In this document: positions 46,533 to 46,697 of the stretch, piece by piece
How positions within the stretch are numbered: the stretch's first letter is position 1
How the letters are laid out: every line of letters begins with the position of its first letter
Sequence record: PQ510734.1
DNA: 64,000 nt
Strand: one strand, 5' to 3'
Source: Escherichia phage A6-6
The notes under the pieces: generated by a model
Told to the model about the DNA's origin: nothing
The model's database searches: none
What the model saw: only the letters and a program-made list of their open reading frames with translations
Made by a program: the position numbers and the translations under genes

Positions 46533-46697
46533 ATGAAAACATATAAAGAATTTATCAAAGAAGATATGGTCGCTGGAGATTCAGGTGGTAATCCTGAAAA
46601 TATCTCCACTGGAACAACGTCAGGCGCTGTAGTAAATAAAGGTCCTGAACAGATTCCTAAAAAGAAAAAAGAGGAATCTAAAGAAAAAGAAGAGTAA
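46533..46697 (+). CDS. small protein with capsid-targeting-like N-terminus (54 aa)
   Basis: MKTYKEFIKE N-terminus resembles the IP capsid targeting sequence; Lys/Glu-rich tail; GAGG RBS. Confidence 0.45.
   Translation: MKTYKEFIKEDMVAGDSGGNPENISTGTTSGAVVNKGPEQIPKKKKEESKEKEE

Follow-up and report, generated by a model that had tools for sequence, protein, structure and literature searches.

Gene 61.1 of T4-type phages: a probable small prohead passenger related to the maturation segment of capsid protein gp23

Gene 61.1 and its surroundings

The DNA analysed here (the window) is a stretch of 64,000 nucleotides from Escherichia phage A6-6 (record PQ510734.1, one strand), in which a sequence-only reading had proposed a 54-residue ORF with a capsid-targeting-like N-terminus. 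The ORF proved to be real, with exactly the sequence quoted and with the start codon and ribosome-binding site listed in Table 1, and the comparison with the T4 ORF at position 61.1 that had been suggested gave identity at 52 of 54 residues. The surrounding region (45800-47800) is 97-99% identical to hundreds of T-even phages and belongs to a Tequatrovirus (T4-type) segment, the plus strand of the window corresponding to the minus strand of T4. Gene 61.1 is preceded by gene 61.2 and followed by primase gene 61, and helicase gene 41, dmd and spackle lie upstream of it; the neighbours assumed in the sequence-only reading (gene e, and the dmd-sp-61 locus) were confirmed, as Dmd, Spackle, DnaB-type helicase 41, primase 61 and Soc of the window all gave Pfam matches. 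The genes are closely spaced: the Shine-Dalgarno sequence of 61.1 is situated within the last codons of 61.2 (stop TAA at 46529-46531), its own stop (TAA, 46695-46697) is separated by 2 nt from the ATG of gene 61 (46700), and its last codons double as a purine-rich stretch just before the gene 61 start.

Table 1. Features of gene 61.1 and comparator genes in the window
Feature	Coordinates	Strand	Remarks
Gene 61.1	46533..46697	+	ATG start, 54 codons and TAA stop
Shine-Dalgarno GAGG of 61.1	46524-46527	+	Read from sequence; 5 nt before ATG
Decapeptide MKTYKEFIKE, CTS-type propeptide	46533..46562	+	Y4, F7, I8 and E10 as in IPII/IPIII
I8-K9-E10, predicted gp21 prohead protease site	46554..46562	+	Cut after E10, between 46562 and 46563
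Residues 11-38, DMVAGDSGGNPENISTGTTSGAVVNKGP, paralogue of gp23* N-terminus (A66-P93)	46563..46646	+	N-fist (66-91) and G92-P93
Residues 39-54, EQIPKKKKEESKEKEE, charged tail	46647..46694	+	Net charge about -1
Gene e (lysozyme)	1286..1780		Located where the sequence-only reading had placed it
Internal-protein-type gene, comparator	1869..2186	+	105 aa; MKTYKEFIAE, 9/10 identical to 61.1; phrog_3966
Internal virion protein gene, comparator	2203..2676	+	157 aa; MKTYQEFITE; phrog_3155 'internal virion protein', E 6e-102

The gene is annotated as '61.1 hypothetical protein' in T4, PP01, RB14 and JS98. Searches of Pfam, NCBIfam and PADLOC with 61.1 gave no match, while phrog_1823 (E 7e-34) and phrog_2086 (E 2.6e-16) both matched. 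Among the searchable papers, 'gp61.1' occurred in two gene tables only, its peptide strings occurred in no main text, and no function was discussed for it. Selick and colleagues reportedly established in 1993 that ORFs 61.1-61.5 are coding sequences conserved among T2, T4 and T6, and we know of no function assigned to them there.

Two further observations concern the neighbouring genes. Gene 61.2 of the window (46175-46531, plus strand) encodes only 118 aa, compared with 208 aa in T4, and matches the C-terminal half of Pfam AdfA, 'Anti-DarT factor A' (profile positions 113-211 of 211; E 2e-8, above the cut-off); it may represent an anti-DarT factor in truncated or alternative form. Between primase gene 61 and the dCTPase gene 56, a 66-aa hydrophobic ORF is present on the opposite strand (47725-47925, minus strand), with a terminator-like hairpin beside it (47891-47910). 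A 65-aa minus-strand gene (5527-5724) is found at the same place in phage JM10, and in the protein list of phage ValerieMcCarty04 a hydrophobic 63-aa protein (WKM80552.1) immediately precedes the primase entry.

A capsid-targeting-type decapeptide joined to a gp23-like segment

The sequence-only reading had noted that 61.1 shares its first residues with both internal-protein genes near e, and a six-frame scan of the whole window agreed: only three ORFs start with MKTY[KQ]EFI, namely 61.1 and the two comparators in Table 1, so that chance does not account for the shared motif. The first 30 nt of 61.1 are identical at 26 positions to each of the internal-protein genes, and the regions upstream are unrelated. 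Mutagenesis of T4 IPIII has assigned residues 4 and 7 of the capsid targeting sequence (CTS) to targeting and residues 8 and 10 to processing (Mullaney & Black 1996, summarised in PMC9026906). When aligned with the IPII/IPIII sequence (MKTYQEFIAE), 61.1 differs by Q5K and A9K only, and the targeting (Y4, F7) and processing (I8, E10) determinants are all identical. The I-K-E↓D that follows (↓, cleavage) fits the motif (L/I)-x-E↓ of the prohead protease gp21, the kind of site that the sequence-only reading had proposed to look for. Judged by its sequence, the N-terminus of 61.1 is a bona fide CTS-type decapeptide.

The same pattern (hydrophobic residues at positions 4 and 7, L/I at 8, E at 10) was found at other cleaved N-termini of the head: in the 10-residue propeptide of T4 gp24 (MAKINELLRE↓S; T4 segment, from 7324), at the start of RB49 gp24 (MTHIFTELLRE↓S; RB49 segment, from 45605), and in the last ten propeptide residues of gp23 (residues 56-65, AQAFGSFLTE↓A; T4 segment, from 4946). 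The recurrence of the pattern in gp24, gp23 and the internal proteins suggests that these elements share either their origin or the rule by which they are recognised. In RB49, a scan of 9-150 kb of the 164 kb for CTS-like ORF starts returned gp24 and 61.1 only, and the idea that the decapeptide was simply borrowed from the internal-protein genes was rejected on that account. As a separate observation, the 105-aa CTS gene beside e falls into phrog_3966 ('unknown function') and not into a family annotated as internal protein; it probably encodes a variant internal protein of A6-6 that is still uncharacterised.

The likeness to gp23 extends beyond the decapeptide. Residues 2-38 of 61.1 align without gaps with gp23 57-93 (16 of 37 identical; BLASTP, E 1e-8), Glu10 being aligned with gp23 Glu65, on whose C-terminal side gp21 makes its cut. 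The decapeptide corresponds by descent to gp23 56-65, with I8-K9-E10 in register with L63-T64-E65↓A66, and residues 11-36 align with the 'N-fist' of mature gp23 (residues 66-91; PMC7136217). Within the DMVAGDSGGNPENISTGTTSGAVVNKGP segment, G15, D16, G27 and G31 are invariant. When the 61.1 family profile was compared with the whole PDB, gp23 chains were the only significant matches (E 3e-9, gp23 50-101), and profile-profile comparison with hhalign gave a probability of 97.3% (E 1.8e-11) over gp23 47-105. Sequence comparison thus establishes the body of 61.1 as a free-standing paralogue of the gp23 propeptide end, the L-x-E↓ site and the N-fist. A search of the protein collection with the gp23 N-terminus returned 8 fragments only. 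Co-variation of the 61.1 core with the N-fist of gp23 from the same phage was weak (8 phages, all permutations; P 0.035 by identity, 0.23 by BLOSUM62) and was not used as evidence.

In spite of this N-terminal homology, 61.1 is not a capsid protein and falls outside the gp23 family (Pfam PF07068, HK97 fold): with 54 aa in total and an alignment to gp23 57-93 only, it is devoid of the A, P and I domains of the HK97 fold. Homologues of 61.1 are labelled 'major capsid protein' or 'major capsid domain-containing protein' in several GenBank/UniProt entries, which is an over-annotation resulting from the partial likeness to the gp23 N-terminus.

Distribution, forms and virion peptides of the family

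The 61.1 core was detected by tblastn in 1432 phage records, including phages of Escherichia, Klebsiella, Aeromonas, Acinetobacter and Vibrio, among others. For comparison, gp23 was found in 1989 records, about 440 of which are cyanophages; in the latter, likeness to gp23 begins only past the first part of the N-fist, and none of them is among the 61.1 matches. The family is thus near-universal in non-cyanophage T4-like phages, and the gene was always located between helicase 41 and primase 61 (T4, RB49, JS98, JM10, 44RR, Aeromonas 65.2, Kimel, MP1 and KVP40-type phages). The window protein shows the family motif, E-x-(M/V)-V-A-G-D-(S/A)-G-G ... G-x-T-(S/T)-G ... G-P followed by a charged tail. 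Core dN/dS ranged from 0.06 to 0.37 against relatives, with synonymous sites saturated, and the core is under strong purifying selection, which ruled out a pseudogene or relic. The tail is strongly basic in most relatives (mean net charge +5.5 across the family for the 20 residues past G-P); in T-even 61.1 (A6-6) the EQIPKKKKEESKEKEE tail carries a charge of about -1.

Most genera contain a long form of 143-170 aa (about 155; phrog_2086), the short form being phrog_1823. In the long form a conserved helical N-domain of about 100 aa precedes the cleavage motif, after which come the N-fist-like core and a basic tail. In Escherichia phage JM10, a long form occupies the position of T4 61.1 in an otherwise T4-like locus. 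At the DNA level the T4-type decapeptide aligns with '..IFKELPLFE' at the end of the long-form linker, which shows '..IFKE..LFE' to be ancestral and the T4 short form to be a truncation of the long form. AlphaFold predicted the long-form N-domain to be helical with confidence, and the core and tail of the family to be disordered; the predicted disorder of the core agrees with that of gp23 66-105 in the unexpanded head (PMC9546572). The long-form N-domain gave no fold match in the PDB, and a resemblance to the gp23 delta-piece was rejected, since hhalign aligns gp23 47-105 alone and nothing upstream.

The cleavage motif [LIVMF]-x-E is retained in 143 of 149 family members (138 at the exact gp23 register, five shifted by one), against a background of 2%; of the six exceptions, four have Asp at P1 and two are shifted the other way. 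The Asp-P1 members (P0078, P0080, P0083 and P0086; Yersinia phage JC221 type) read L-I-T-D↓A or L-I-V-D↓A, and by analogy with IPIII, where Asp at position 10 blocks processing and not targeting, they may be uncleaved. Two other variants were observed. The long-form N-domain also occurs with unrelated C-termini, in Methylophilales phage Melnitz (2992-3603) and inside BFVD proteins of 387-913 aa (A0A411BBR2, A0A1B1IT15 and A0A6J7WVK5), and might be a general long targeting propeptide. In three metagenomic members, P0029 (247 aa), P0033 (149 aa) and P0126 (239 aa), the reading frame continues past the basic tail into 'MNEV..FK.F.EG', which resembles the start of a CTS, and on into a conserved domain of about 100 aa, an arrangement resembling a downstream CTS gene fused to 61.1.

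Evidence at the protein level came from published virion proteomes. CsCl-banded virions of the Klebsiella Jiaodavirus phages ValerieMcCarty03/04 have been digested with trypsin and the spectra searched with PEAKS against a six-frame translation (PMC13119998). Supplementary Data S2 of that study includes WKM80554.1, a 55-aa 'putative capsid protein' adjoining the primase, which is 73% identical to 61.1 of the window. The peptides reported for ValerieMcCarty04 were E.EMVAGDAGGNPQNIASGTTSGAVVNK.G (-10lgP 89.88 and 65.16) and E.MVAGD...K.G (-10lgP 54.36) (PMC13119998). Their N-termini are non-tryptic and lie directly past L10-N11-E12, the equivalent of I8-K9-E10 in 61.1 and L63-T64-E65 in gp23; the uncleaved tryptic form was not among the peptides listed in the available part of the supplement. 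The three spectra fall below the 15-PSM cut-off of the authors, who do not comment on the protein, and the preparation also holds clearly non-structural proteins (PMC13119998). The N-terminus of gp23*, which could have served as an internal control, was not present in the examined portion of the supplement. Propeptide removal at an L-x-E site is accordingly documented for the 73%-identical homologue only, with gp21 as the presumed protease. In Morganella phage MP1, the long-form homologue gp027 was absent from the 58 virion proteins reported (PMC5384007). The proposal of the sequence-only reading that the ORF encodes a capsid-targeted peptide is supported by the CTS determinants, the protease site and the cleaved homologue peptides, and found no counterpart in the MP1 virions.

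With respect to expression, a T4 time-course study placed 61.1 RNA in class 'early' (protein class NA), as it did the RNAs of ipII and ipIII. The late promoter TATAAATA was found neither near 61.1 nor within 38 kb upstream on the same strand, and no convincing middle promoter was found near the gene. Head assembly gene 40 shares the early replication cluster with 61.1, so that location in this cluster is no objection to a role in the head.

A proposed role in the head, and the alternatives

In our favoured explanation, to which we give a probability of about 0.62, gp61.1 is a small prohead passenger that is cut to a 44-residue internal peptide of head maturation, associated with DNA or shell. 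The protein would be made early, and the decapeptide would carry it into the assembling scaffolding core. The N-fist-like segment may be a second targeting element, as the length mutants A66D, A94V and G97S have led to the view that the same region of gp23 (residues 66-97) touches the scaffold (PMC9546572). Prohead protease gp21 would then cut after Glu10, and the product, a 44-residue intrinsically disordered peptide (DMVAGD...KGP plus the charged tail) predicted to start at Asp11 (DMVAGDSGGNPENIS(I/T)GTTSGAVVNK), would be retained with the particle and, if internal, ejected with the DNA. Targeting and cleavage are well supported, and the physical presence of the peptide in particles has indirect support. 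For the final role of the 44-mer, most likely in head maturation as an internal peptide associated with DNA or shell, three candidates were considered: an internal DNA-associated peptide, favoured by the basic tail; a mimic occupying a shell or scaffold site; and, ranked last, a decoy for capsid-sensing defence. Universal conservation points to a core morphogenetic role rather than to a host-specific weapon.

This layout has partial precedents. The T4 internal proteins IPI, IPII and IPIII, which bear a CTS, are processed by gp21 and are co-injected with the DNA, share with 61.1 the determinants Y/F4, F7, I8 and E10, the cut at Glu10, the early RNA class in the T4 data set and, with most members of the family, a basic character. 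They differ in being hypervariable cargo of 8-20 kDa with unrelated bodies, encoded in a cluster by gene e, whereas 61.1 is near-universal, evolves slowly, has 44 residues once cut and a body that copies the capsid protein N-terminus, and in most genera has a conserved 100-aa N-domain in place of the decapeptide. The maturation region of gp23 (the end of the delta-piece, E65↓A66 and N-fist 66-91) is homologous to 61.1, with the same cleavage register and a predicted disorder before docking; 61.1 differs in having no HK97-fold body, small residues in place of H72 and Y74, and past G-P a tail rich in lysine where gp23 has its N-arm and Gol region. The T4 core proteins gp67 and gp68 and internal peptides II and VII are small, charged, gp21-cleaved products of the head interior that are kept in the particle, as proposed for 61.1, but they are acidic and come from late genes in the head cluster (20-67-68-21-22-23), in contrast to the mostly basic 61.1 family of the early replication cluster. 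The long form, with its N-domain of about 100 aa and protease site, resembles the 'long CTS' layout of the long head-protein propeptides in giant phages (SPN3US, phiKZ).

The same steps of targeting and cleavage could lead to a different final role, that of a shell accessory: substituting for a gp23 N-terminus, the cleaved N-fist-like peptide would bind to the gp23/gp24 lattice or to the scaffold and so tune capsid length, expansion or stability. The homology of the core to the N-fist, a segment that makes contact with four subunits and contributes to the Soc site, is in line with this, as are the gp23 length mutations in the corresponding region and the unassigned density reported under the gp24 P domains (PMC9546572). 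That density is helical, however, and the gp24 N-terminus already fills the inter-capsomer role at the vertices (PMC9546572), while no unexplained N-fist-like density was reported in either PMC9546572 or PMC7136217. Moreover, H72 and Y74 of gp23 are replaced by S/A and G, respectively, in every 61.1, which makes identical docking doubtful, and the basic tail would rather suggest DNA binding. We therefore regard a shell accessory as unlikely.

A related and speculative idea, to which we would give only a small chance, is that the cleaved peptide acts in trans as a mimic of the N-fist, either as a competitor in the prohead or as a decoy ejected from it. The competitor would vie for the sites of gp23 N-termini on scaffold or shell and so set head length or the timing of expansion; the decoy, being pre-made and ejected with the DNA, would saturate host sensors of the capsid protein N-terminus before gp23 is synthesised.

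The sequence-only reading had gone further and suggested that the peptide, injected with the DNA, could serve counter-defence before any gene is expressed. A peptide retained in the head interior may well be injected, but the effector role was not borne out: the body is paralogous to the maturation site and N-fist of gp23, the gene is spread over many genera and strongly conserved, and PADLOC gave no match. Only the neighbourhood (dmd, sp and the AdfA-like 61.2) hints at a link to defence. The same neighbours and early transcription could be accommodated by a version in which 61.1 is never packaged and acts in the cytoplasm as an early mimic of the gp23 N-terminus, blocking or deceiving capsid sensors, a chaperone or a protease; defence systems that sense gp23 exist, CmdTAC and Lit/Gol among them. 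A decoy of this kind would need neither a CTS nor an in-register protease site throughout the family, the near-universal spread and slow evolution are unlike those of anti-defence genes, the homologue peptides in the virion data are cleaved, and the segment ends at G92-P93 and so excludes the Gol region, which we take to be gp23 93-122. This version is in our view rather improbable, and 61.1 is probably an overlooked small head component rather than a free-standing anti-defence effector.

The constant position between helicase 41 and primase 61 in all genera compared, together with a basic tail that could bind DNA, might indicate an accessory of the replisome. In these phages, though, synteny extends over the entire replication cluster, head gene 40 included; two other ORFs separate 61.1 from gene 61 in RB49, the long-form N-domain of Melnitz is located away from any primase, and the only detectable homology is to the capsid protein, all of which makes a replisome accessory very unlikely. 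The 2-nt gap, and the purine-rich terminus of 61.1 at the place expected for a ribosome-binding site of gene 61, could suggest a mere translational leader coupling ribosomes to a poorly translated primase gene. This is hardly credible in view of the strong amino-acid-level selection on the core, the conservation of the protein where the primase start is not adjacent (gaps of 80-140 nt or intervening ORFs) and the homologue peptides detected by mass spectrometry.

Few viruses have had their head assembly studied as thoroughly as T4, and gene 61.1 has nevertheless remained 'hypothetical'. If the favoured explanation of a cleaved prohead passenger is true, the head has a further component that is processed in the prohead; conserved in nearly all Straboviridae, it arose by duplication of part of the maturation switch of the capsid protein itself. 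Through a common h4-x-x-h7-(L/I)8-x-E10 pattern the gene connects the cleavage site of gp23 with the 10-residue propeptide of gp24 and the CTS of the internal proteins, three elements so far regarded as separate; its analysis corrects the recurrent mis-annotation as 'major capsid protein', and it would offer a natural minimal packaging tag and cleavage site for the engineering of T4 protein delivery. Should the trans-acting mimic be true, a virion-borne fragment of a structural protein serving as a regulator would be a new principle, and it would suggest that the CTS of the internal proteins descends from the capsid protein's own cleavage site.
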